Positions 6,070 to 44,933 are shown, numbered from the stretch's first letter. The stretch is DNA of 44,933 nucleotides from a virus (IMGVR_UViG_2541047866_000012), one strand, 5' to 3'. Program-made: numbers and translations. Notes: generated by a model from the letters alone, not told the origin.

Positions 6070-6894
6070 TCAGGCGGTGAAAGTACCAATAAAGGTTTCT
6101 ACTTTGCTGTCCTTGAATTTCTCAACAAGCAGATCACGAAATTCGTTAGCCATTTCCTCCTGCACTGCTTCCAGCTGAATAATGCGCAGAACCAGTACAG
6201 GACGATCGCCAGTGAGAATGCTGAGGCGTAATTTAAACGGACGTTCTTTCAGGCCTTCAAACGGAACGCATTTAAATTCAAATGCCACTGGCATAATGTC
6301 TTTGGTTTTCGCTTCGACAGACTCCATCAGAGAGCGTTTGCCGCTGAAGTCATTGTCTTCAAAATCAGCGGTCTGGTTTGCTTCAATCGTGATTTTACGG
6401 ACCGCCGCAGCCGCTTTTGTTGCCTGAATGGCGTCACCATTAGCATCAAAGCCCACAAGGTAGTCGGCCCAGTCTTCAATCCATTCTGCCAGTGACTTCT
6501 GGGAGTTACGCTCGCCATTAACAGACAACAGAGCAGAGAACGGTGCTGTCTTTTTCAGTTTGAGAGTGGCGGTGTTATCTGCGTGACCTGGTTCATCAAT
6601 AGTACCCAGATTAAGCACACTGACAGCACGCATATTATCAGCATCGATAAAGCAGCGGGTGCCTTCATCTGCAAGATCTTTAGAATAACGGGTAAAGTCA
6701 TCGATGCTGGCAGTGGAAAGCGCACCACGGAAACGGAAGCGATTTAAATTAAATTTTTCCAGATCATGAATGCGGAAATTCTCAGGCAATGCCACAGCAT
6801 CGGCACCAATCTTACTGATAATTTCATTAACACCCTGAGCAGAAATAAGGGCATGGATTTGATTAATTGCGGTTGCGTCTAAGTTCTGAGACAT
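6070..6894 (-). CDS. YfdQ-like phage protein (DUF2303-like)
   Basis: 274 aa; size and sequence recalled as CPS-53 YfdQ-like; sits in a yfdP-yfdT-like gene order. Confidence 0.75.
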
Positions 6895-6959
6895 AATAAG
6901 TCCTCACTATATAAAGATATTCAGTGATGAGATAAATAATCAGTTAATTAAGAACGATA

Positions 6960-7322
6960 TTAATGACCTGCTGCGCGGAGTTTTCCGTCAGGTTCACCGG
7001 CAAGAGTCAGTAATTGTCCCTGGTCTTCCTGCAGAATAGTCAGGCGACCACCGCGATTGACATACATCGGCGTTTCGGTGGTGTCTTCTTCGGAAATTTT
7101 CCCGCGGTTAGTTGGGCGAACATATGAGAGTTTGTGTTTGATTTTCACACGGTTCTCATCAAACGGTTCGATTTCCAGATTGAGTGAGACCTTCCCTTTG
7201 GTTTTCGTGTTCATCACACCGGAAGCGACTTCACTTAGAACTGCGCCGATTTTTGTTTCAAATACGCCGCCGTCCAGCTCCCCGATAAATGCCTGCACAT
7301 CAGTACTGCGTTCACTAGCCAT
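6960..7322 (-). CDS. Hypothetical phage early protein (first gene of leftward operon)
   Basis: Start at MASERS (ATG 7322) preceded by GAGGAG RBS; 120 aa; the upstream extension in the ORF track lacks an RBS. Confidence 0.7.
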   Translation of the reverse strand: MASERSTDVQAFIGELDGGVFETKIGAVLSEVASGVMNTKTKGKVSLNLEIEPFDENRVKIKHKLSYVRPTNRGKISEEDTTETPMYVNRGGRLTILQEDQGQLLTLAGEPDGKLRAAGH

Positions 7323-8044: not shown

Positions 8045-8737
8045 TTAATTGTGTCGCTTAAGGGTTTGTGACTGGCTGATTAAGACCTTTCCAAAGACCA
8101 TAAACCGGTGTTCATTTTCGCTGGTAATTCCCCATTCACGGTAAATCTGGTTATCAGAAATCACCAGTAGTTTGTCAGGTATCATTTGCAGTCGTTTGAC
8201 ATAAATTTTATCATCAAAACCAAATACATAGATACCATCTCCATCAAACTGATTGATACTGACATCAACGAAGATGAGATCTCCTGGCTCAATGGTTGGA
8301 CACATACTGTCCCCACGAACGTTGATAACTTTAATGTGATTGGCTGGCCGTCCGCCAAACATCGATACAGCATTATCAGTTCTGTATTCAATGGCATGAA
8401 TCACATCAATGACATCACCGCCCTGGATAAGGCCATTTCCCGCACTGGCACTGACATCCAGCATTTCAATACGGAATACATCCTTCACCTGCGCAACATC
8501 CTCACTAATACTGTTTTTACATACAGTATTACTTTTGAAGTCTGAGGTAAAGAGATCAGCAATATCAACACCTAAGCTCCTGGCAATATTACTCAGGGCT
8601 TGTTCAGTGAATTGTTTCTGCTTACCTGTTTCCAGGCGTGAGATATTCGCCGCATCCACTCCTATTGCTTCAGCGAGATCGGCGATTTTCATGTTCTTCG
8701 CCTGGCGAAGTTGTCTGACTCGGTTTCCTATGTTCAT
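8045..8737 (-). CDS. cI: CI-type phage repressor (HTH_XRE + S24 LexA-like peptidase domain)
   Basis: 230 aa; N-terminal HTH (IADLAEAIGVDAANISRLETGK); C-terminal S24 motifs (GDSM, VKRL); divergent from cro across an operator region. Confidence 0.93.
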   Translation of the reverse strand: MNIGNRVRQLRQAKNMKIADLAEAIGVDAANISRLETGKQKQFTEQALSNIARSLGVDIADLFTSDFKSNTVCKNSISEDVAQVKDVFRIEMLDVSASAGNGLIQGGDVIDVIHAIEYRTDNAVSMFGGRPANHIKVINVRGDSMCPTIEPGDLIFVDVSINQFDGDGIYVFGFDDKIYVKRLQMIPDKLLVISDNQIYREWGITSENEHRFMVFGKVLISQSQTLKRHN

Positions 8738-35224: not shown

Positions 35225-38200
35225 ATGGGTAAAGGCAGCAGTAAGGGACATACCCCGCGCGAAGCAAAGGACAATCTGAAGTCCACGCAGTTGCTGAGTG
35301 TGATCGATGCCATCAGCGAAGGGCCGATTGAAGGTCCGGTGGATGGATTAAAAAGCGTGCTGCTGAACAGTACGCCGGTGCTGGACAGTGAGGGGAATAC
35401 CAACATCTCCGGTGTCACGGTGGTGTTCCGGGCAGGTGAGCAGGAACAGACACCGCCGGAGGGATTTGAATCCTCCGGATCCGAGACGGTGCTGGGTACG
35501 GAAGTGAAATACGACACGCCGATCACCCGGACCATCACGTCTGCAAACATCGACCGTCTGCGCTTTACCTTCGGTGTGCAGGCACTGGTGGAAACCACCT
35601 CAAAGGGGGACCGGAATCCGTCGGAAGTCCGCCTGCTGGTTCAGATACAGCGTAATGGTGGCTGGGTGACGGAAAAAGACATCACCATTAAGGGCAAAAC
35701 CACCTCGCAGTATCTGGCCTCGGTGGTGGTGGATAACCTGCCGCCGCGCCCGTTTAATATCCGGATGCGCAGAATGACGCCGGACAGCACCACAGACCAG
35801 CTGCAGAACAAAACGCTCTGGTCGTCATACACCGAAATCATCGATGTGAAACAGTGCTACCCGAACACGGCACTGGTCGGCGTGCAGGTGGATTCGGAGC
35901 AGTTCGGCAGCCAGCAGGTGAGCCGTAATTATCATCTGCGCGGGCGTATTCTGCAGGTGCCGTCGAATTATAACCCGCAGACGCGGCAATACAGCGGTAT
36001 CTGGGACGGAACGTTTAAACCGGCATACAGCAACAACATGGCCTGGTGTCTGTGGGATATGCTGACCCATCCGCGCTACGGCATGGGGAAACGTCTTGGT
36101 GCGGCGGATGTGGATAAATGGGCGCTGTATGTCATCGGCCAGAATTGCGACCAGTCGGTGCCGGATGGCTTTGGTGGCACGGAGCCGCGCATCACCTGTA
36201 ACGCTTACCTGACCACGCAGCGTAAGGCGTGGGATGTTCTCAGCGATTTCTGCTCGGCGATGCGCTGTATGCCGGTATGGAACGGGCAGACGCTGACGTT
36301 CGTGCAGGACCGACCGTCGGATAAGGTGTGGACCTATAACCGCAGTAATGTGGTGATGCCGGATGATGGCGCGCCGTTCCGCTACAGCTTCAGCGCCCTG
36401 AAGGACCGCCATAATGCCGTTGAGGTGAACTGGATTGACCCGGATAACGGCTGGGAGACGGCGACAGAGCTTGTGGAGGACACGCAGGCCATTGCCCGTT
36501 ACGGTCGTAACGTCACGAAGATGGATGCCTTTGGCTGTACCAGTCGGGGGCAGGCACACCGCGCCGGGCTGTGGCTGATTAAAACGGAACTGCTGGAAAC
36601 GCAGACCGTGGATTTCAGCGTCGGCGCAGAAGGGCTTCGCCATGTACCGGGCGATGTTATTGAAATCTGTGATGATGACTATGCCGGTATCAGCACCGGT
36701 GGTCGTGTGCTGGCGGTGAACAGCCAGACCCGGAAGCTGACGCTCGACCGTGAAATCACGCTGCCATCCTCCGGTACCACGCTGATAAGCCTGGTTGACG
36801 GAAGTGGCAATCCGGTCAGCGTGGAGGTCCAGTCCGTCACCGACGGCGTGAAGGTGAAAGTGAGCCGGGTTCCTGACGGCGTTGCCGAGTACAGCGTGTG
36901 GGGGCTGAAGCTGCCGACGCTGCGCCAGCGCCTGTTCCGCTGTGTGAGTATCCGTGAGAACGATGACGGCACGTATGCCATCACTGCCGTGCAGCATGTA
37001 CCGGAAAAAGAGGCCATCGTGGATAACGGGGCGCACTTTGACGGCGACCAGAGCGGCACGGTGAATGGTGTCACGCCGCCAGCGGTGCAGCACCTGACTG
37101 CCGAAGTCACCGCAGACAGCGGGGAATATCAGGTGCTGGCGCGCTGGGACACGCCGAAGGTGGTGAAGGGGGTGAGCTTTATGCTTCGCCTGACCGTGGC
37201 AGCGGATGACGGCAGTGAGCGGCTGGTCAGCACGGCCCGGACGACGGAAACCACATACCGCTTCACGCAACTGGCGCTGGGGCGGTACACGCTGACAGTC
37301 CGGGCGGTAAATGCGTGGGGACAGCAGGGCGATCCGGCGTCGGTATCGTTCCGGATTGCCGCACCGGCAGCACCGTCGAGGATTGAGCTGACGCCGGGCT
37401 ATTTTCAGATAACCGCCACGCCGCATCTTGCCGTTTATGACCCGACGGTACAGTTTGAGTTCTGGTTCTCGGAAAAGCGGATTACCGATATCAGGCAGGT
37501 TGAAACCACAGCCCGCTATCTTGGTACGGCGCTGTACTGGATAGCCGCCAGTATCAATATCAAACCGGGCCATGATTATTACTTTTATATCCGCAGTGTG
37601 AACACCGTTGGCAAATCGGCATTCGTGGAGGCCGTCGGTCGGGCGAGCGATGATGCGGAAGGTTACCTGGATTTTTTCAAAGGCAAGATAACCGAATCCC
37701 ATCTCGGCAAGGAGCTGCTGGAAAAAGTCGAGCTGACGGAGGATAACGCCAGCAGACTGGAGGAGTTTTCGAAAGAGTGGAAGGACGCCAACGATAAATG
37801 GAATGCCATGTGGGGCGTCAAAATTGAGCAGACCAAAGACGGCAAACATTATGTCGCGGGGCTTGGCCTCAGCATGGAGGATACGGAGGAAGGCAAACTG
37901 AGCCAGTTCCTGGTTGCCGCTAACCGTATCGCGTTTATTGACCCGGCAAACGGGAATGAAACGCCGATGTTTGTGGCGCAGGGCAACCAGATATTCATGA
38001 ACGAAGTGTTCCTGAAGTATCTGACGGCTCCCACCATTACCAGCGGCGGTAATCCTCCGGCATTTTCCCTGACACCGGACGGGCGGCTGACGGCGAGAAA
38101 TGCTGATATCAGCGGTAACGTGAATGCGAACTCCGGGACGCTCAATAATGTCACGGTAAATGAAAACTGTACGATTAAGGGCATGCTGGAGGCGAACCAG

Positions 38201-38638
38201 GTCAGAGGTGACTTCGTTAAAACTGTATCCAAATCATTCCCGAAAAAGGCTGGTACGTGGGGTAACACGGAAACACCAAACGGGACGGTTACAGTCACCA
38301 TTTACGATGATCATAACTTTGACCGCCAAATCATTATTCCGCCCATTATTTTTAACGGTGTGGCGTATGACGATCCGGGGAGCGGTAATAACCCGGGAGG
38401 TACGCGATACACGGGTTATGGTTTTGAAGTTCGCAAAAATGGCGTATTAATCGCATCCAGAGAAACTAAAGGAGCCATTCCCGGTAGTTACAGTGCGGTT
38501 ATTGATATGCCGAGTGGTGGTGGTAACGTCACTCTGGAGTTTAAGATTTTCCAGAAAGGCAATCAGGGCGCAGGAAACATCACAGACTGTACGGTGATTG
38601 TGACCAAAAAAGCTGCTTCCGGTATCAGTATCCGTTGA
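35225..38638 (+). CDS. Tail tip / host specificity protein J, divergent C-terminal receptor-binding domain
   Basis: 1137 aa; first about 980 residues near-identical to recalled lambda J; last about 150 residues (from about nt 38180) differ. Confidence 0.96.
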
Positions 38639-38658
38639 AATATTTATAACCCCAATAC

Positions 38659-38684
38659 GGGCGCCAGCAATGGCGCCTTTTTTA
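38659..38684 (+). terminator. Intrinsic terminator after J
   Basis: Hairpin GGCGCC-AGCAAT-GGCGCC followed by TTTTTT. Confidence 0.65.
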
Positions 38685-38698
38685 TTTGTGGAGTGAGT

Positions 38699-41071
38699 AT
38701 GGCAGTACAGATTTCAGGTGTGCTGAAAGATGGTGCGGGAAAACCAATACAGAACTGCACTATTCAACTGAAGGCAAAGCGTAACAGCACCACGGTACTG
38801 GTGAACACGGTGGCCTCTGAAAATCCGGATGAAGCCGGGCGTTACAGCATGGATGTTGAGTATGGCCAGTACAGCGTCATCCTGCTGGTTGAAGGTTTTC
38901 CGCCTTCACATGCCGGGACCATTACCGTCTATGAAGGCTCCAGACCAGGTACGCTGAATGATTTTCTCGGTGCCATGACGGAAGATGATGTCATGCCGGA
39001 GGCATTGCGTCGTTTTGAGGAAATGGTGGAAGAAGCGGCACGCAACGCTGAAGCCGCCTCTCAGAGCGCAGCGGCGGCAAAGAAATCCGAAACTGCAGCG
39101 GCATCATCGAAGAACGCGGCGAAAACCTCAGAAACGAATGCAGCTAATAGTGCACAGGCGGCAGCGACCTCACAGACTGCATCAGCAAACTCCGCGACAG
39201 CAGCCAAAAAATCAGAAACCAACGCGAAAAATAGCGAGACAGCCGCAAAGACGAGCGAAACCAACGCAAAGTCCAGCCAGACGGCAGCGAAGACCAGCGA
39301 AACGAATGCTAAAGCCAGTGAAACTGCGGCAAAAAACAGCCAGGTTGCAGCAGCCCAAAGCGAGAGCGCGGCAGCCGGTTCTGCGACTTCAGCAGCTGGA
39401 TCAGCAACTGCTGCGGCTAACAGCCAGAAAGCTGCGAAGACGAGTGAAACTAACGCAAAGTCCAGCCAGACGGCAGCGAAGACCAGCGAAACGAATGCCA
39501 AAGCCAGTGAAACTGCGGCGAAAAGCAGTCAGGATGCAGCGGCCCAAAGCGAGAGTGCCGCAGCCAGTTCTGCAAGTGAGGCGGCGGCTTCTGCTACTGC
39601 ATCAGCCAACAGTCAAAAAGCTGCAAAAACCAGTGAAACCAACGCAAAGGCGAGCGAGACTACGGCGGCCAACTCGGCGAAAGCATCCGCTGCAAGCCAG
39701 ACCGCTGCAAAAGCAAGTGAAGACGCAGCCAGAGAGTATGCAAGCCAGGCAGCAGATCCGTATAAATATGTCTTACAGCCGCTACCTGATGTGTGGATAC
39801 CGTTTAACGATTCACTGGATATGATTACGGGCTTTTCGCCATCATATAAAAAGATTGTTATTGGTGACGACGAAATAACGATGCCTGGCGACAAGATTGT
39901 TAAGTTTAAACGTGCATCGAAAGCAACCTATATTAACAAATCTGGTGTGCTGACAGAGGCTGCCATTGATGAGCCTCGATTTGAACGTGATGGCCTGCTT
40001 ATTGAGGGGCAAAGAACGAACTACATGCTCAATTCGGAAAACCCTGCCAGTTGGGGGCGATCGTCAAATATGGATGTTCCCGAAACCGGGACGGATAGTT
40101 TTGGTTTTACCTATGGAAAGTTTGTCTGTAACGATTCTCTGATTGGGCAAACCTCAGCCATTAATATGGCATCAATTGCTGCAACAAAGTCAGTTGATGT
40201 CTCAGGCGATAATAAATACGTGACAACCTCATGTCGTTTTAAAACAGAACTGCAGGTAAGGTTGCGTATCCGATTTGATAAATATGACGGTAGCGCAACA
40301 ACTTTTCTTGGTGATGCGTATATTGATACACAAACGCTTGAAATTAATATGACAGGCGGCGCTGCCTCAAGGATTACAGCGAGAGTCAGAAAGGACGAAG
40401 CTACCGGATGGATTTTTGCAGAGGCAACAATTCAGGCAATTGATGGGGAGTTAAAAATAGGTTCTCAGATACAGTATTCTCCTAAGCAGGGCGGGGCAAC
40501 CGTATCTGGTGACTATATTTATCTGGCCACCCCACAAGTAGAAAATGGGCCTTGTGTATCATCTTTTATTATATCAGGAACGACGGCGGCGACCCGCGCA
40601 AGCGATATAGTTACAGTTCCCATTAAGAATAATCTTTATAATCTTCCTTTTACGGTTCTTTGTGAGGTACATAAGAACTGGTATAAAACGCCAAATGCAG
40701 CGCCGCGTGTTTTTGACACCGGCGGTCATCAAACCGGAGCGGCTATTATTCTTGGCTTCGGTTCTTCAGCAGATTACGACGGATTTCCTTATTGCGATAT
40801 TGGAGGAGCTAACAGACGGGTAAACGAAAACGCATTGCTTGAAAAAATGGTTATGGGGATGCGTGTAAAGTCAGATCAGTCTACGTGCTCAGTAAGTAAC
40901 GGGCGTATATCCAGCGAAACAAAAACCACATGGTCCTGTATTCAGAACACCGCAATTATCCGTATTGGAGGCCAGACTACAGCCGGGTTACGTCATTTAT
41001 TTGGTCATGTCAGGAATTTCAGAATATGGCACAAGGCATTGACTGATGCTCAGGTGGGGGAGTCAATCTAA
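38699..41071 (+). CDS. stf: Side tail fibre: lambda Stf-like N-terminus, KTSETNAK-type repeat shaft, replaced C-terminal LamG/ConA-like domain
   Basis: ATG 38699 with GGAG RBS; N-terminus MAVQISGVLKDGAGKPIQNCTIQLKAKRNSTTV matches lambda Stf; C-terminal about 430 aa unlike lambda Stf, ending ...LFGHVRNFRIWHKALTDAQV. Confidence 0.9.
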   Translation: MAVQISGVLKDGAGKPIQNCTIQLKAKRNSTTVLVNTVASENPDEAGRYSMDVEYGQYSVILLVEGFPPSHAGTITVYEGSRPGTLNDFLGAMTEDDVMPEALRRFEEMVEEAARNAEAASQSAAAAKKSETAAASSKNAAKTSETNAANSAQAAATSQTASANSATAAKKSETNAKNSETAAKTSETNAKSSQTAAKTSETNAKASETAAKNSQVAAAQSESAAAGSATSAAGSATAAANSQKAAKTSETNAKSSQTAAKTSETNAKASETAAKSSQDAAAQSESAAASSASEAAASATASANSQKAAKTSETNAKASETTAANSAKASAASQTAAKASEDAAREYASQAADPYKYVLQPLPDVWIPFNDSLDMITGFSPSYKKIVIGDDEITMPGDKIVKFKRASKATYINKSGVLTEAAIDEPRFERDGLLIEGQRTNYMLNSENPASWGRSSNMDVPETGTDSFGFTYGKFVCNDSLIGQTSAINMASIAATKSVDVSGDNKYVTTSCRFKTELQVRLRIRFDKYDGSATTFLGDAYIDTQTLEINMTGGAASRITARVRKDEATGWIFAEATIQAIDGELKIGSQIQYSPKQGGATVSGDYIYLATPQVENGPCVSSFIISGTTAATRASDIVTVPIKNNLYNLPFTVLCEVHKNWYKTPNAAPRVFDTGGHQTGAAIILGFGSSADYDGFPYCDIGGANRRVNENALLEKMVMGMRVKSDQSTCSVSNGRISSETKTTWSCIQNTAIIRIGGQTTAGLRHLFGHVRNFRIWHKALTDAQVGESI
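39251..39628 (+). repeat. In-frame 189-bp tandem duplication (about 90 percent identical) within stf shaft
   Basis: Copy 1 from 39251 and copy 2 from 39440 (ACGAG(C/T)GAAAC(C/T)AACGCAAAGTCCAGCCAGACGGCAGCGAAGACCAGCGAAACGAATGC...); further diverged KxSETNAK units upstream. Confidence 0.8.
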
Positions 41072-41352
41072 TGAAAGATTTAACACTCAAATTTGCCGAC
41101 AGGGCCGACTTTTCGGCCTTTATGGAGAGTATTGGCTATTATGATGACGAGTCGATGCAGGATGATATTCTTATTGACGTGATAGGTAACGTGTACAAAG
41201 AAAACGGAGAACTGAATGAAGATGGCGAACCGGTATGTGTTAAGGACGACGGATATTTTGTAAACGTGCGCATCATTAATGATGTGAAAACACCATCAAT
41301 ATTCGATGAATACGTGGTTGCTGTTGAGCATCAACTTCGTGGCTGGATGTGA
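41071..41352 (+). CDS. Hypothetical acidic small protein, translationally coupled to stf
   Basis: 93 aa; TAATG overlap with stf stop; no recognised motif. Confidence 0.6.
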   Translation: MKDLTLKFADRADFSAFMESIGYYDDESMQDDILIDVIGNVYKENGELNEDGEPVCVKDDGYFVNVRIINDVKTPSIFDEYVVAVEHQLRGWM

Positions 41353-41361
41353 GGAAGAAAA

Positions 41362-42402
41362 ATGGCTACATCGACAGTAATTCCTGATGACATCAAAACG
41401 CTAAAATCCGACGTTAGCAAATTAAAAAACGATCAAGGAAGCTACGCAACAAAATCATATGTAGACAGCAAAGATGAAACCGTTGGTGACTGGTCTGCTT
41501 CATGGTATCAGCAGGTATTGCCAACTAGCGGAGCTATATTTGGGAGAAAACTCCGCTCAACTCACAGGACGGCAGGTGTTGAGGATGCGTATTGCGAACT
41601 ATACCTCAAAAAATGGATAGACAGTCCAGGTAACGCAATGGCGCGCCTTAACCTGAACGATAACGGGACAAACATTTGCTGGGACTTTACCAACCTTTAT
41701 GGCGGTACGATGATTTTTCCCGGTGACAGCGGATACCTCAAAATGGGTAACTGCCTTATGTCATACAGCAAGCGTGGAAGTAACGCGCTTATTAAATTTG
41801 ATTACACCGACACATTACAGATCAAATATGCCAATCATGGGTCAACCATGACATTAAACACACAGGGAACCGCTCATTCTGGCGCTACTACTAGTTTGTG
41901 GGGTAACTCTACCCGTCCGGTTGTATATGAAGTTGGTGCTGATGGTGGCGCGTATATGTTCTATGCGCAGAAAAATACCGATAACACCTATATGTTAAGC
42001 GTTAATGGTGCATGTCATGCCACCGCATTTAACCAGCATTCCGACCGGGATCTGAAAGACAACATTCAGGTGATCGATAATGCAACCGACCGCATCCGTA
42101 AAATGAACGGCTATACATACACGCTTAAAGAAAACGGTATGCCCTATGCTGGTGTCATTGCACAGGAAGCACTGGAAGCAATCCCAGAAGTTGTAGGTTC
42201 CGCAATGAAATATCAGGACGGTGCAGGCGGATCGGAAGGTGAAGAAGGTGAACGTTATTACACAGTAGATTATTCTGGTGTTACTGGCTTGCTTGTTCAG
42301 GTAGCCAGAGAGTCAGACGACAGAATAACAGCACTGGAAGAAGAAAACGCAGAATTAAGACAAAGATTATCTGCAATTGAGGCGGCGCTTGCGTCTAAAT
42401 AA
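41362..42402 (+). CDS. Tail fibre / tailspike-like protein with C-terminal intramolecular chaperone (peptidase S74) domain
   Basis: 346 aa; C-terminal HSDRDLKDNIQVIDNATDRIRKMNGYTYTLKENG...AGVIAQEALEAIPEVV plus terminal coiled coil fits the self-cleaving chaperone signature. Confidence 0.8.
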   Translation: MATSTVIPDDIKTLKSDVSKLKNDQGSYATKSYVDSKDETVGDWSASWYQQVLPTSGAIFGRKLRSTHRTAGVEDAYCELYLKKWIDSPGNAMARLNLNDNGTNICWDFTNLYGGTMIFPGDSGYLKMGNCLMSYSKRGSNALIKFDYTDTLQIKYANHGSTMTLNTQGTAHSGATTSLWGNSTRPVVYEVGADGGAYMFYAQKNTDNTYMLSVNGACHATAFNQHSDRDLKDNIQVIDNATDRIRKMNGYTYTLKENGMPYAGVIAQEALEAIPEVVGSAMKYQDGAGGSEGEEGERYYTVDYSGVTGLLVQVARESDDRITALEEENAELRQRLSAIEAALASK

Positions 42403-42408
42403 TATTAA

Positions 42409-42428
42409 GGGGCCGAGCGCCCCGTTTT
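42409..42428 (+). terminator. Intrinsic terminator after S74 fibre gene
   Basis: Hairpin GGGGC-CGAGC-GCCCC followed by GTTTTATT. Confidence 0.65.
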
Positions 42429-42444
42429 ATTGGGTAGGATGAAA

Positions 42445-42738
42445 ATGGATATAACACCTTTCCTTCATGCGCTTTGTGCTGCGGCTGCGCAGCTATTGAT
42501 TGGTCTTTTTACCGGGAACTGGGCTTACGGGGCGATAGCCGGTTGTACGTTCTTCATTGCGCGCGAACATACCCAGGCAGAATATCGCTGGATTGAAATG
42601 TTCGGGCATGGCAAGCGTATGAATATGCCGTGGTGGGGCGGTTTTGATCCTCGTGCATGGGATGTGGCAAGCCTGATGGATTTTTCTGTGCCGGTGGTGG
42701 CGTGTCTGCTGGTCTGGCTGTTGGTTAATCGTGGGTGA
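42445..42738 (+). CDS. Hypothetical small membrane protein
   Basis: About 97 aa from ATG 42445 (AGGA RBS); hydrophobic N- and C-terminal segments. Confidence 0.5.
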   Translation: MDITPFLHALCAAAAQLLIGLFTGNWAYGAIAGCTFFIAREHTQAEYRWIEMFGHGKRMNMPWWGGFDPRAWDVASLMDFSVPVVACLLVWLLVNRG

Positions 42739-42748
42739 AAAAAGGTGA

Positions 42749-42876
42749 GCTGTATATGCAACGGAGGAAGAAACCTCGTTGCTGGAAGCCTGGAAGAAGT
42801 ATCGGGTGTTGCTGAATCGCGTTGATACATCAGTAGCACCGGATACTGAGTGGCCGGAAGAACCAGACACAATGTA
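42749..42876 (+). pseudogene. tfa: C-terminal remnant of tail fibre assembly gene (about 42 codons)
   Basis: Translates ...[39 protein letters not shown]-stop, the conserved Tfa C-terminus; in-frame TGA at 42746 and no start codon. Confidence 0.65.
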
Positions 42877-43041
42877 AGTGAAAAAGAAAAAACGCAGACA
42901 CGACGTATGCAGGACGTGCTGCGGTTGGCTGGTGAACTTTCGATAGTGCGAGTATTGAATGATTTCCAGCCGTTACTGATTTTACGCATTTCACGCGCAA
43001 GAGAAATTGAACTTTATCCCTCTGTCACCCCATGACGGGGA

Positions 43042-43800
43042 TTAACATTCTGGATTTTTTATTTCTAAATCAGATAAAGCATTAATTCTTATTTTTTCTA
43101 AGGCTTTATCCATGGCCCCCTTGATTCTGTATCCATAATCATCCGGTTCTTCATATTCCTGTGGGGACGGATTTGTACCAATATTCTCAATCAATTCATT
43201 TAAAATAACTGTTACTTCTTTATTAAGAAGAACTGCTTTAGTTAACATCATCTCTGTTAATGCTGTGAAGGCTAGGCTAAGTTTCTGTTGTAGCTCTTTA
43301 TTTTTTAATTTTAGATCTTCATCGTTTAGTGCTTTATCACGGTCTTCGTGAGCCTGTTGTACTTCATCCCAAAACTGCTTTTCTTGTTCTTGATTAAAAT
43401 ATCCTTGATAACTATTGGCTACATATGTTGGCATCATGTGAATCTCAATAATTTCAAATTCATTATCAGCCCATTTTTTTATACTAAGTAACTGTGTGTA
43501 AATGTACTCATACATATCGTACTTTTTTTGCCAGATTTGTTGAGAAATCCACAACTCAGAAGTAATCTTTTTTTCTATATCTTTGATAGTTGTTGTATTT
43601 AATGCTAACTGCTTTCTGAGTATTTCATAGTTAGCGTTGGTAGCAGAAATTTTTGCTTTTTCAGTTATAAAAGAAACAATAAAGTTCACTATGAGAGCTA
43701 CAATAATAATAGCGAAGCTCAACCCCAAAATCTCTGTGGTTGAGAAATTGGATGACTGTAATGCTTTGATAAGTTCAAAAAACTGTTTTTCTGTGAGCAT
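43042..43800 (-). CDS. AT-rich single-TM coiled-coil membrane protein, unknown function (cargo gene B)
   Basis: 252 aa; TAAGG RBS; TM helix about residues 24-45; Lys/Glu/Gln-rich coiled-coil-like remainder. Confidence 0.8.
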   Translation of the reverse strand: MLTEKQFFELIKALQSSNFSTTEILGLSFAIIIVALIVNFIVSFITEKAKISATNANYEILRKQLALNTTTIKDIEKKITSELWISQQIWQKKYDMYEYIYTQLLSIKKWADNEFEIIEIHMMPTYVANSYQGYFNQEQEKQFWDEVQQAHEDRDKALNDEDLKLKNKELQQKLSLAFTALTEMMLTKAVLLNKEVTVILNELIENIGTNPSPQEYEEPDDYGYRIKGAMDKALEKIRINALSDLEIKNPEC

Positions 43801-43898: not shown

Positions 43899-44933
43899 TC
43901 AAGGAGGTGAGATTGTAGAGGCGTTACCTTGTTCTATCACACCAGACCTAATCTTGTAACTACCAAGGATGTTGACCGTTTTATTATTTTTCATCGCGTC
44001 AAAAATTAAGCCTATTTCATCAGGGTCATTGATAAAACTGGTATCAACATAGATCGGGAATGAATCATCACCTGTTGGCTCATGGCAGCTTAACGTTAGC
44101 TTATCGGCTGAGCGTTTTATACTATCAATGACAACTTCCAATGTTTGCTGCTCTGACTTAGCCTTTTCAATTGGGTTCTTGATGATTTCTTGAACCTGAC
44201 CTTGCGAAAGTTCAATATTGCTGGCCCCGCGGATCGTCACTTTGTCTGCATCAGATGCACCTTTAAGAACTCCAGTGTATGCCTTAGCGGTGTGCTCTTG
44301 GATACCTTCGGCGCGCTCTATCGTATCAATACCTTCATGTGCTTTTATTGCAGACAGCATACCATCGCGTAGAATTGTCATCCGCTCGGATTCTGCTCGC
44401 TGTTTTGCTTCTTCCTGTTGTAACTCAATAGTTTTGGTTTCGACTTGTGTCTGATGATCTAAGTAGGACGTACCGACCCATGCGCCGCCTAAAACTAAGA
44501 CAGCAAACAGGAAACACATTGTTTTCTGTCTTGGGCTCATACCTTGTGTTACCTTCTCAAATGCGTTACCAAAGGAATCAATAAGTTCTTTAACTGAGGT
44601 GATAATTTCTGTACAGCCAGGTTTGATAGTAAAAACCAACTCTGCAGCTTCTCTATCCTCAGCAGTGAGCTTCTGTAAGTTAGAGGTTTTGTACTTGATT
44701 AGAGTAAAAACCTTGTACATCTCAGTTTGAAATTCACAAATACCCTGTGCCAAACCTGCAGGCAGAGTACCATTATACTTATCTTCATCACCAAAAAATT
44801 TGAAATCAATACTTTCTAAGAAGTTTAACTTCAAATTTTCAATGTGGATTTCTTCGCCTGAAATAACTCGGTCGAAAATATTTCCTATATCATCAATATC
44901 ATTGATTTCATAGGTCTGAATTGCATCTTCCAT
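43899..44933 (-). CDS. AT-rich single-TM membrane protein, unknown function (cargo gene A)
   Basis: 344 aa; start ATG is the last three bases of the window; internal TM helix about residues 138-158 (TMCFLFAVLVLGGAWVGTSYL). Confidence 0.8.
   Translation of the reverse strand: MEDAIQTYEINDIDDIGNIFDRVISGEEIHIENLKLNFLESIDFKFFGDEDKYNGTLPAGLAQGICEFQTEMYKVFTLIKYKTSNLQKLTAEDREAAELVFTIKPGCTEIITSVKELIDSFGNAFEKVTQGMSPRQKTMCFLFAVLVLGGAWVGTSYLDHQTQVETKTIELQQEEAKQRAESERMTILRDGMLSAIKAHEGIDTIERAEGIQEHTAKAYTGVLKGASDADKVTIRGASNIELSQGQVQEIIKNPIEKAKSEQQTLEVVIDSIKRSADKLTLSCHEPTGDDSFPIYVDTSFINDPDEIGLIFDAMKNNKTVNILGSYKIRSGVIEQGNASTISPP

Follow-up and report, generated by a model that had tools for sequence, protein, structure and literature searches.

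The side tail fibre locus of the viral sequence IMGVR_UViG_2541047866_000012 (44,933 nucleotides (nt); this whole stretch is called the window here) is a mosaic. Our comparisons show that it has kept the collar and the alanine-rich, coiled-coil-type shaft of a lambda-type side tail fibre (Stf), and they indicate that the distal half of this fibre and almost all of the fibre assembly gene tfa were replaced by a portable cassette that also includes a small membrane protein. In itself, the locus is an ordinary, widespread version of the side tail fibre of lambda-like Escherichia coli prophages. What is new here is that the fibre tip, a small open reading frame (orf93) and a second short fibre (f346) form a conserved cassette, which, as judged from sequence comparison, also occurs on Nonagvirus, P2-like and another myovirus fibre.

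Recombinational replacement of the lambda-type tip and tfa, as proposed in an initial annotation of the window, is well supported by the alignment with lambda. Nucleotide homology to lambda is confined to three stretches, namely the gene J up to position 38194, the 5' end of stf (38682–39048, 84%) and the 3' end of tfa (42757–42855, 92%). From nt 39048 to the tfa stump this alignment gave no match beyond a single one of 29 nt in the shaft. Homology thus ends after the N-terminus of stf and returns only in the last ~100 nt of tfa, and the C-terminus of stf and the genes downstream of it are not colinear with lambda stf-tfa. At the protein level, no homology to the gp37-like distal half of lambda Stf was found past Stf residue 112. 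The C-terminal part of stf had also been described as richer in AT, and this was indeed the case. The G+C content was 0.52–0.57 over 38650–39850 and 0.41–0.46 over 39700–42400, which amounts to a fall from about 0.55 to about 0.44 near 39700, after which it remains low up to 42400. The left junction of the replacement, at nt 39776, coincides with this fall.

The same junction recurs in other phages. Nonagvirus ESCO3 aligns with the window over 39776–42338 (95.6% nt identity) and a P2-like prophage over 39776–41093 (93.9% nt identity), and the alignment of phage 21 begins at 39778. Because these three matches all begin there or 2 nt further on, nt 39776, at Stf residue ~362 and just 5' of the motif PLPDVWIPFNDSL, is a recurrent exchange point. 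The right edge of the replacement sits in the C-terminal motif of Tfa, which is also kept in the Caudo_TAP proteins of the P2-like locus and of a myovirus locus (L096). This would fit an exchange by homologous recombination within a conserved linker. The junction between the small membrane gene downstream (m102) and the tfa stump is common to phage Tritos, phage 21-type loci and E. ruysiae prophages, and is also present in phage 21-type loci without a second fibre. The replacement is therefore old and widely inherited, rather than an event within this prophage.

All features listed in the initial annotation were found where it had placed them. Coordinates of open reading frames (ORFs) were taken from the ORF calls of the window and from the Prokaryotic Genome Annotation Pipeline (PGAP) annotation of the 100%-identical chromosome of E. 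coli FDAARGOS_1303. The fibre module consists of the following features:

38699–41071, + strand: side tail fibre gene stf (790 amino acids from the ATG of PGAP, 792 from a GTG at 38693; full-length match to PHROG 1419, 'tail protein')
38699–38980, + strand: N-terminal collar domain of Stf (Pfam phage_tail_N; PDB 9e7m; identity to lambda Stf)
39023–39757, + strand: Ala/Ser/Thr-rich shaft of Stf (composition; 189-nt tandem repeat at 39233–39660)
39776–41068, + strand: replaced tip of Stf, residues 362–792 (conserved entry motif, then two ConA-like jelly-roll domains)
about 39998–40600, + strand: first jelly roll of the tip, resembling the head spike fibre of a gene transfer agent (GTA)
about 40577–41068, + strand: second jelly roll of the tip, LamG/pentraxin-like
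40020–40990, + strand: variable cassette 1, the tip core (from alignability across 84 related loci)
41071–41352, + strand: orf93, a small acidic protein (PHROG 1361, labelled function unknown)
41362–42402, + strand: f346, the second short fibre (N-terminal peptide, short coiled coil, beta-rich body with a T4 gp34-like knob, C-terminal S74 chaperone; full-length match to PHROG 4563)
41362–41433, + strand: conserved N-terminal peptide of f346, MATSTVIPDDIKTLKSDVSKLKND, the proposed docking peptide
41405–42430, + strand: variable cassette 2, the body of the short fibre
42040–42399, + strand: Peptidase_S74 intramolecular chaperone, f346 residues 227–346 (Pfam match; predicted self-cleavage before Ser227)

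The N-terminus of Stf is of the lambda type. Pfam phage_tail_N (PF08400) matches residues 3–133 (E 1.8e-67, 225.9 bits against a cut-off of 26.6), the Ur-lambda tail fibre chain of PDB 9e7m matches residues 3–96 (E 1.7e-49), and residues 1–112 are 85% identical to lambda Stf. The lambda-type collar domain fixes the side fibre to the tail tip (PMC12617516). The shaft is composed of 36% Ala, 19% Ser and 11% Thr, and Tandem Repeats Finder detected a repeat with a period of 189 nt at 39233–39660 (2.3 copies, 83% matches). The initial annotation had called both the N-terminus and the shaft lambda-like. This holds for the N-terminus, but for the shaft it applies to the composition and not to the sequence, of which only the 29-nt match aligns. 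Ur-lambda Stf, a trimer attached to the tail tip (PMC12617516), has the same collar domain, the same position after J and likewise an Ala-rich shaft. In contrast, its distal half (a hinge and a T4 gp37-like coiled coil) and Tfa are gone from the window save 39 tfa codons, and the window has a ConA-like tip, orf93 and a separate S74 fibre, and no lom between J and stf.

The initial annotation had read a LamG/ConA-like jelly roll into the C-terminus of Stf. With the tip sequence of the window alone, Pfam Laminin_G_3 stayed under its cut-off (E 0.008, 16.8 bits, cut-off 27.6). It was by way of the homologue family that the domain became evident, as Laminin_G_3 matched 30 of the 48 aligned tip homologues at E≤0.01 (best E 1.9e-11). 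Furthermore, the NCBIfam family GTA_spike_fiber (NF048003, 'GTA head spike fiber') matched Stf residues 436–636 with 51.8 bits against a cut-off of 36. The first half of the tip family profile matched the head spike fibre of the gene transfer agent RcGTA (PDB 6tb9, E 1.4e-40), and the second half matched pentraxins, an S-layer LamG-like domain and the botulinum HCN domain. The AlphaFold2 model of the tip was confident, with a predicted local distance difference test score (pLDDT) of 90.5 and a predicted template modelling score of 0.86, and its best two-domain neighbours in Foldseek were the baseplate wedge proteins Pa193 gp46 and E217 gp45. The Laminin_G_3 matches of the family, the profile matches, the model and its structural neighbours together confirm that the tip is a jelly-roll beta-sandwich, with two ConA/LamG-like domains. 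A search of 1.84 billion cluster representatives returned 2011 tip relatives at E≤0.001, and in all 50 representatives covering the domain it ended at most 3 residues from the C-terminus.

The RcGTA head spike fibre (Rcc01080), which is homologous to the first jelly roll of the tip, binds capsular polysaccharide (PMC10218006). By analogy with this fibre and with CBM40 module relatives, the tip may bind a surface glycan. The PB1-like baseplate wedge proteins Pa193 gp46 and E217 gp45 resemble the tip in having two ConA domains. The carriers differ, since these domains are mounted on a head spike or a baseplate wedge in the known systems and on the end of a trimeric tail fibre here. Pa193 gp46 was also considered as a known case in which a fibre docks on a ConA-like domain, and was rejected because its attachment loop (residues 80–113) lies outside the matched region.

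The ATG of orf93 overlaps the stop codon of stf (TAATG), which points to translational coupling, and the protein has an isoelectric point of 4.09, in agreement with the coupled acidic ORF of 93 residues that had been noted 3' of stf. orf93 had no match in Pfam, NCBIfam, PADLOC or PDB, and family searches revealed no similarity to known chaperone families. A divergent Tfa was rejected, as hhalign against Caudo_TAP gave a probability of 0.2% and these same databases gave no match. Fibres with a ConA tip are directly followed by homologues of orf93 in distant loci as well as in those of P2-like phages, phage 21 and Nonagvirus. With orf93, 80 IMG/VR loci were recovered, of which three end before the downstream gene is fully visible, and in all of them the gene lies between a ConA-type tip (39–100% identical) and a gene opening with a MATxTxIPxDI peptide. 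A scan of species-representative genomes with orf93 gave only four loci. Three of these belong to Escherichia genomes, and the fourth is on a short contig from a metagenome bin with the label Collinsella. This pattern-based scan probably misses distant members, since homologues of 25–28% identity surfaced only downstream of distant tip homologues.

The second fibre, f346, was predicted to carry a peptidase-S74 chaperone, and the domain search bears this out. Pfam Peptidase_S74 (PF13884) matches residues 227–278 (E 6e-14, 52.5 bits, cut-off 22), and a C-terminal helix comes after this match. In S74 cleavage sites of the endoNF type, the catalytic Ser and Lys are five residues apart. The motif SDRDLK at residues 227–232 of f346 places S227 and K232 at this spacing, and across 26 homologues S227, D228 and K232 each show a conservation of at least 90%. 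Knowledge of the family leads us to predict that f346 cleaves itself before Ser227. The family profile of f346 also matches T4 gp34 (residues 171–224) and the C-terminus of S16 gp37 (residues 213–336), and its closest 90%-identity cluster holds 2132 member sequences. No phage_tail_N or other known attachment domain was found in f346 with Pfam. A shorter fibre of 234 residues, with S74 at residues 116–172, is found at 6292–6996 of locus L036 and in about 30 other IMG/VR loci. Judging by its sequence, maturation of this type would leave little beyond a coiled coil and the N-terminal peptide, and nothing that is obviously a receptor-binding body.

The trio of tip, orf93 and short fibre is not tied to one kind of shaft. 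In the P2-like locus, the same tip (95% amino acid identity) sits on a P2-type fibre with another attachment domain (PF12571). It is followed by a coupled 92-residue homologue of orf93 (50% identity), a 303-residue fibre (Gp34_trimer) and the fibre's own Caudo_TAP chaperone. The first 24 residues of this 303-residue fibre, MATVTTIPADITNLKKEIDSIKSN, resemble MATSTVIPDDIKTLKSDVSKLKND of f346. Among distant loci, L092 combines a tip of 36% identity and an orf100 of 28% identity with a 272-residue S74 fibre. L096, which lies in a myovirus baseplate context, has a tip of 37% identity, an orf93 of 25% identity, and a 235-residue fibre followed by Caudo_TAP. L094 also keeps the trio of a tip, an orf93-like gene and a short fibre. 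The N-terminal peptide M[AV]TxT[VI]IPxDI..LK is common to short fibres with unrelated bodies, including the 346-residue and 234-residue types, the P2-linked fibre of 303 residues and that of L094.

Within the module, two variable regions lie between conserved segments. Among the related loci (n=84), about 45–54% align in cassette 1 (40020–40990) and about 47–57% in cassette 2 (41405–42430), compared with 92–99% in the flanks of cassette 1. The central conserved linker comprises the last ~25 stf codons, orf93 and ~15 codons at the start of the short fibre, and nucleotide conservation of the N-terminal peptide region of f346 stops at about 41405. Tip identity ranges from 39 to 100% among loci in which orf93 is at least 89% identical. 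The short fibre downstream in the IMG/VR loci is either of the 346-residue type or of the 234-residue type, the latter being essentially the peptide, a coiled coil and the S74 domain. Tip and short-fibre alleles are mixed, as tips that are 97–99% identical occur with either fibre type, and likewise tips that are 42–46% identical. Two variable cassettes that assort independently fit what two specificity determinants would look like.

These patterns suggest a side fibre with two specificities that is probably branched or jointed, in which the short fibre would dock by its N-terminal peptide and orf93 would act as connector. To this combination we would give roughly an even chance. Stf trimers, anchored by the lambda-type collar, would end in three ConA-like tips. 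f346 would trimerise with the help of its S74 domain and cut itself before Ser227, leaving a mature fibre of ~226 residues. This mature fibre would dock by its conserved peptide onto the distal end of Stf, where orf93 would join the two as a connector. The side fibres of the virion would then be branched or jointed and would have two specificities that can be exchanged independently. A branched or dual-receptor fibre, which the initial annotation had also raised, is plausible on these grounds, as the cassettes assort independently, the peptide is kept across different bodies, and the trio moves onto unrelated shafts. Since the attachment domain of the P2-like shaft is a different one, whatever the short fibre docks on should lie inside the shared block, either in the tip or in orf93. 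A connector role of orf93 is favoured because its sequence tracks the type of N-terminal peptide and not the tip allele, and because it lacks similarity to known chaperones. In a wider sense, the tip, orf93 and N-terminal peptide might constitute a portable joint that adds an exchangeable second fibre to any shaft, whether lambda-type, Nonagvirus, P2-type or of another myovirus. orf93 would then represent a new connector family, and the resulting jointed or branched fibres of two specificities would branch in a manner unlike the T4 gp10-like one. We put this wider proposal forward tentatively, as a possibility.

An alternative explanation might be that orf93 is a dedicated, non-structural folding or assembly chaperone of the ConA-like tip which has taken the place of Tfa. 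The short fibre would then dock directly on the tip, or be an independent add-on. Lying immediately 3' of the fibre gene and coupled to it, orf93 occupies the usual position of a fibre chaperone. It is also kept in phage 21-type loci without a second fibre, and the second fibre has a helper of its own (Caudo_TAP in the P2-like locus and L096, S74 in the window), which would make one helper per fibre. However, orf93 resembles neither Caudo_TAP (hhalign 0.2%) nor known chaperone families, and its identity does not follow that of the tip. The P2-like tip, with 94% nt identity, goes with an orf92 of 50%, and tips of 39–100% identity go with an orf93 of at least 89%. Moreover, more distant ConA-tipped fibres have no orf93-like gene. 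We consider a purely chaperoning orf93 somewhat doubtful.

Several observations speak against the jointed fibre with orf93 as its connector. In phage 21-type loci, a second fibre is missing although the tip, orf92 and the membrane protein are there, and orf93 therefore has a role independent of the short fibre. This arrangement fits a tip chaperone at least as well as a connector, which makes the chaperone almost as likely. In L092 and L096 the second fibre has another N-terminus, and the second fibre of the myovirus might attach to the baseplate by itself. In the more distant ConA-tip homologues L095 and L097, the trio was absent. The conservation of orf93 in the 80 IMG/VR loci is partly so by construction, because these loci were selected by their similarity to orf93. 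Further, the monomer model of f346 was poor (mean pLDDT 56) and unfit for a fold search, and for this protein sequence-profile matches were used. Finally, what is known here are the genes, from which we infer that f346 and orf93 are part of the virion and that f346 contacts Stf.

It might also be that the second fibre does not sit on the side fibre at all. It could be attached elsewhere (to J, the tail tip or the collar region of Stf) or remain unassembled, in which case the gene order would show that exchangeable fibre genes are linked and not that their products touch. In most phages the fibre genes are clustered regardless of contact, some relatives (L021 and L027) have a second complete stf-tfa pair after the S74 fibre, and the second fibre of L096 has a different N-terminus. 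Yet f346 has neither phage_tail_N nor another known attachment domain, its N-terminal peptide is kept whatever shaft lies upstream, and the tip, orf93 and the short fibre are transferred together to the P2-type fibre, whose PF12571 domain is unlike the lambda-type collar. A second fibre that is attached away from the side fibre or left unassembled seems improbable to us.

The jointed fibre would have relatives in logic among known systems. In the T5-like phages DT57C and DT571/2, the lateral fibre of LtfA and LtfB is branched and consists of two proteins, each with a receptor-binding part, of which the second is attached via the first (PMC10743462; PMC10713586). No small partner protein is described there, and in the window the first fibre has a ConA-like tip and no S74, and the branching is a prediction. 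In anchor-branch systems (G7C gp66/gp63.1, the K1-5 gp37 adaptor, Klebsiella KP32/KP34), the second receptor-binding protein has a short conserved N-terminal peptide and a variable body, in some cases with S74, and the anchor protein branches on a T4 gp10-like domain close to its own N-terminus (PMC6872550). The second fibre of the window likewise combines a conserved N-terminal peptide with a variable body. In contrast, Pfam and the family profile search found no T4 gp10-like branching domain here, and the proposed docking site is distal. The window thus differs from branched and anchor-branch systems in its ConA-like distal tip, its small partner protein and the lack of a T4 gp10-like domain. 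The phage 21/mEp460/ev017-type locus is similar in its tip family, its junction (39778), an orf92 homologue (52% identity), the membrane protein and, in relatives, the tfa scar, but it has no second fibre between orf92 and the membrane gene. The BASEL papers mention that lateral fibres of small siphoviruses may comprise one or several proteins. Gifsy-1 Stf and the PhiNP family were considered as fibres of the same type and rejected, as both are of the lambda/T4 gp37 type.

The module is common. With a 4.5-kb query, it was present at a query coverage of at least 80% in 357 of 5426 complete E. coli genomes, and it is intact and 97% identical in the phages Tritos, HannyBb, PhiR63_1 and 2G7b. The window is a lambdoid E. 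coli prophage, and the 4.5-kb region around the module is 100% identical to the chromosome of E. coli FDAARGOS_1303 and 99.8% identical to that of UTI89, in which prfC lies a few kb away. PHROG families 1419, 1361, 4563 and 1443 cover all four proteins end to end, with both fibres labelled as tail proteins and both small ORFs as function unknown. Protein accessions, PHROG numbers and descriptions of lambdoid side fibres led to no paper on the module in the searchable literature. The module is among the common fibre types of E. coli prophages, yet its four proteins have no described function in that literature. The range of E. coli strains to which a lambdoid phage can adsorb is set by its side tail fibres, and these are swapped when phage-based delivery vectors are retargeted. 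If the proposed joint is real, it would offer a ready-made, shaft-independent way of adding a second fibre specificity, and it would account for the presence of orf93-type genes behind ConA-tipped fibres in phages that differ widely. For the window itself, the gain is mainly a correct annotation of an ordinary locus, and the modest interest lies in an uncharacterised, shaft-independent cassette.

Two observations concern the arrangement of the module in single loci. In L021 (7377–9355) and L027 (7377–9349), the place of the membrane gene after the S74 fibre is taken by a second complete side fibre gene (collar 41–42% identical) with a full-length Tfa, and these are prophages with two tandem side-fibre systems. 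L017 and L019 lie on opposite strands of one 25.5-kb contig (IMGVR_UViG_2724679539_000001) and are identical base for base; this perfect inverted duplication of the fibre module is most likely an assembly artefact.

Further features of the locus are:

35225–38638: J, the gene 5' of stf
38659–38678, + strand: terminator-like hairpin in the gap from J to stf (8-bp stem rich in GC, with a T run after it; the phage 21 terminator is annotated at the same position)
42409–42431, + strand: terminator-like hairpin 3' of f346 (GGGGCCGAGCGCCCC followed by GTTTTATT)
42445–42738, + strand: small membrane protein (97 amino acids from the ATG of PGAP, 102 from a TTG at 42430; PHROG 1443, labelled function unknown)
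42758–42877, + strand: tfa stump (last 39 codons of a lambda-type tfa, no start codon)

Upstream, the homology of J to lambda ends at 38194. The last ~148 residues of the protein (38195–38638) are another allele of the receptor-binding domain (Pfam Ig_GpJ_C, E 4e-25), and the terminal receptor may therefore not be LamB. Between J and stf (38639–38698) there is no lom, only the terminator-like hairpin.

The small ORF after the second fibre had been taken for a membrane protein. Its hydrophobic stretches at residues 3–24 and 71–96 agree with this, as does its phage 21 homologue, which is annotated as a membrane protein with two transmembrane domains. The gene lies 3' of the fibre genes in most related loci, and no family besides PHROG 1443 was detectable. 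It sits behind the terminator-like hairpin at 42409–42431 and is more likely an accessory gene expressed from the prophage than a part of the virion.

The tfa stump is 86% identical to residues 156–191 of lambda Tfa (tblastn) and 92% identical to lambda over 42757–42855 (blastn). That only the end of tfa survives had been noted before, and we count 39 codons where about 42 had been given. PGAP describes the stump as a pseudogene 'missing N-terminus' of an incomplete tail fibre assembly protein, and its reading frame was checked; of an intact Caudo_TAP/Tfa gene, only this C-terminal remnant is left. The same scar is found in Tritos, phage 21-type and E. ruysiae loci. A further C-terminal fragment of Tfa, an ORF of 89 residues ending in the Tfa C-terminal motif, lies at 8219–8488 of L036, about 1 kb 3' of the first stump, which suggests repeated exchanges at this motif.

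In relatives, pinR or pinQ lies just 3' of the tfa stump, and a pin gene is present in Tritos and LF82. An invertible segment of the Pin/Gin type was rejected for the window, which has no pin gene and no hix/gix-like site at ≤2 mismatches, and in which the stump is in direct orientation. Just 3' of the stump, a stretch of ~100 nt (42886–42987) is 91% identical to a Tritos segment located 1.75 kb further downstream, past pinR and a regulator. Because of this match, it looks as if, compared with Tritos, the window has lost pin and the regulator by a deletion. One could argue from the tfa pseudogene and the missing pin recombinase and regulator that the region is decaying cargo of a defective prophage which no longer makes functional fibres. 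Yet all four ORFs are intact, and genomes that were deposited as phages and name a propagation host carry the module at 97% identity, together with the same tfa scar. We regard such decay as very improbable.

Further downstream, two AT-rich genes (G+C 0.30–0.45) on the minus strand, at 43042–43800 and 43899–44933, encode proteins of 252 and 344 residues, for which no Pfam match and no convincing PADLOC match was found. At the corresponding position Tritos has pinR, the regulator and the integrase. Possibly, the two genes form a moron or defence-type island by the DinI-like gene and prfC.

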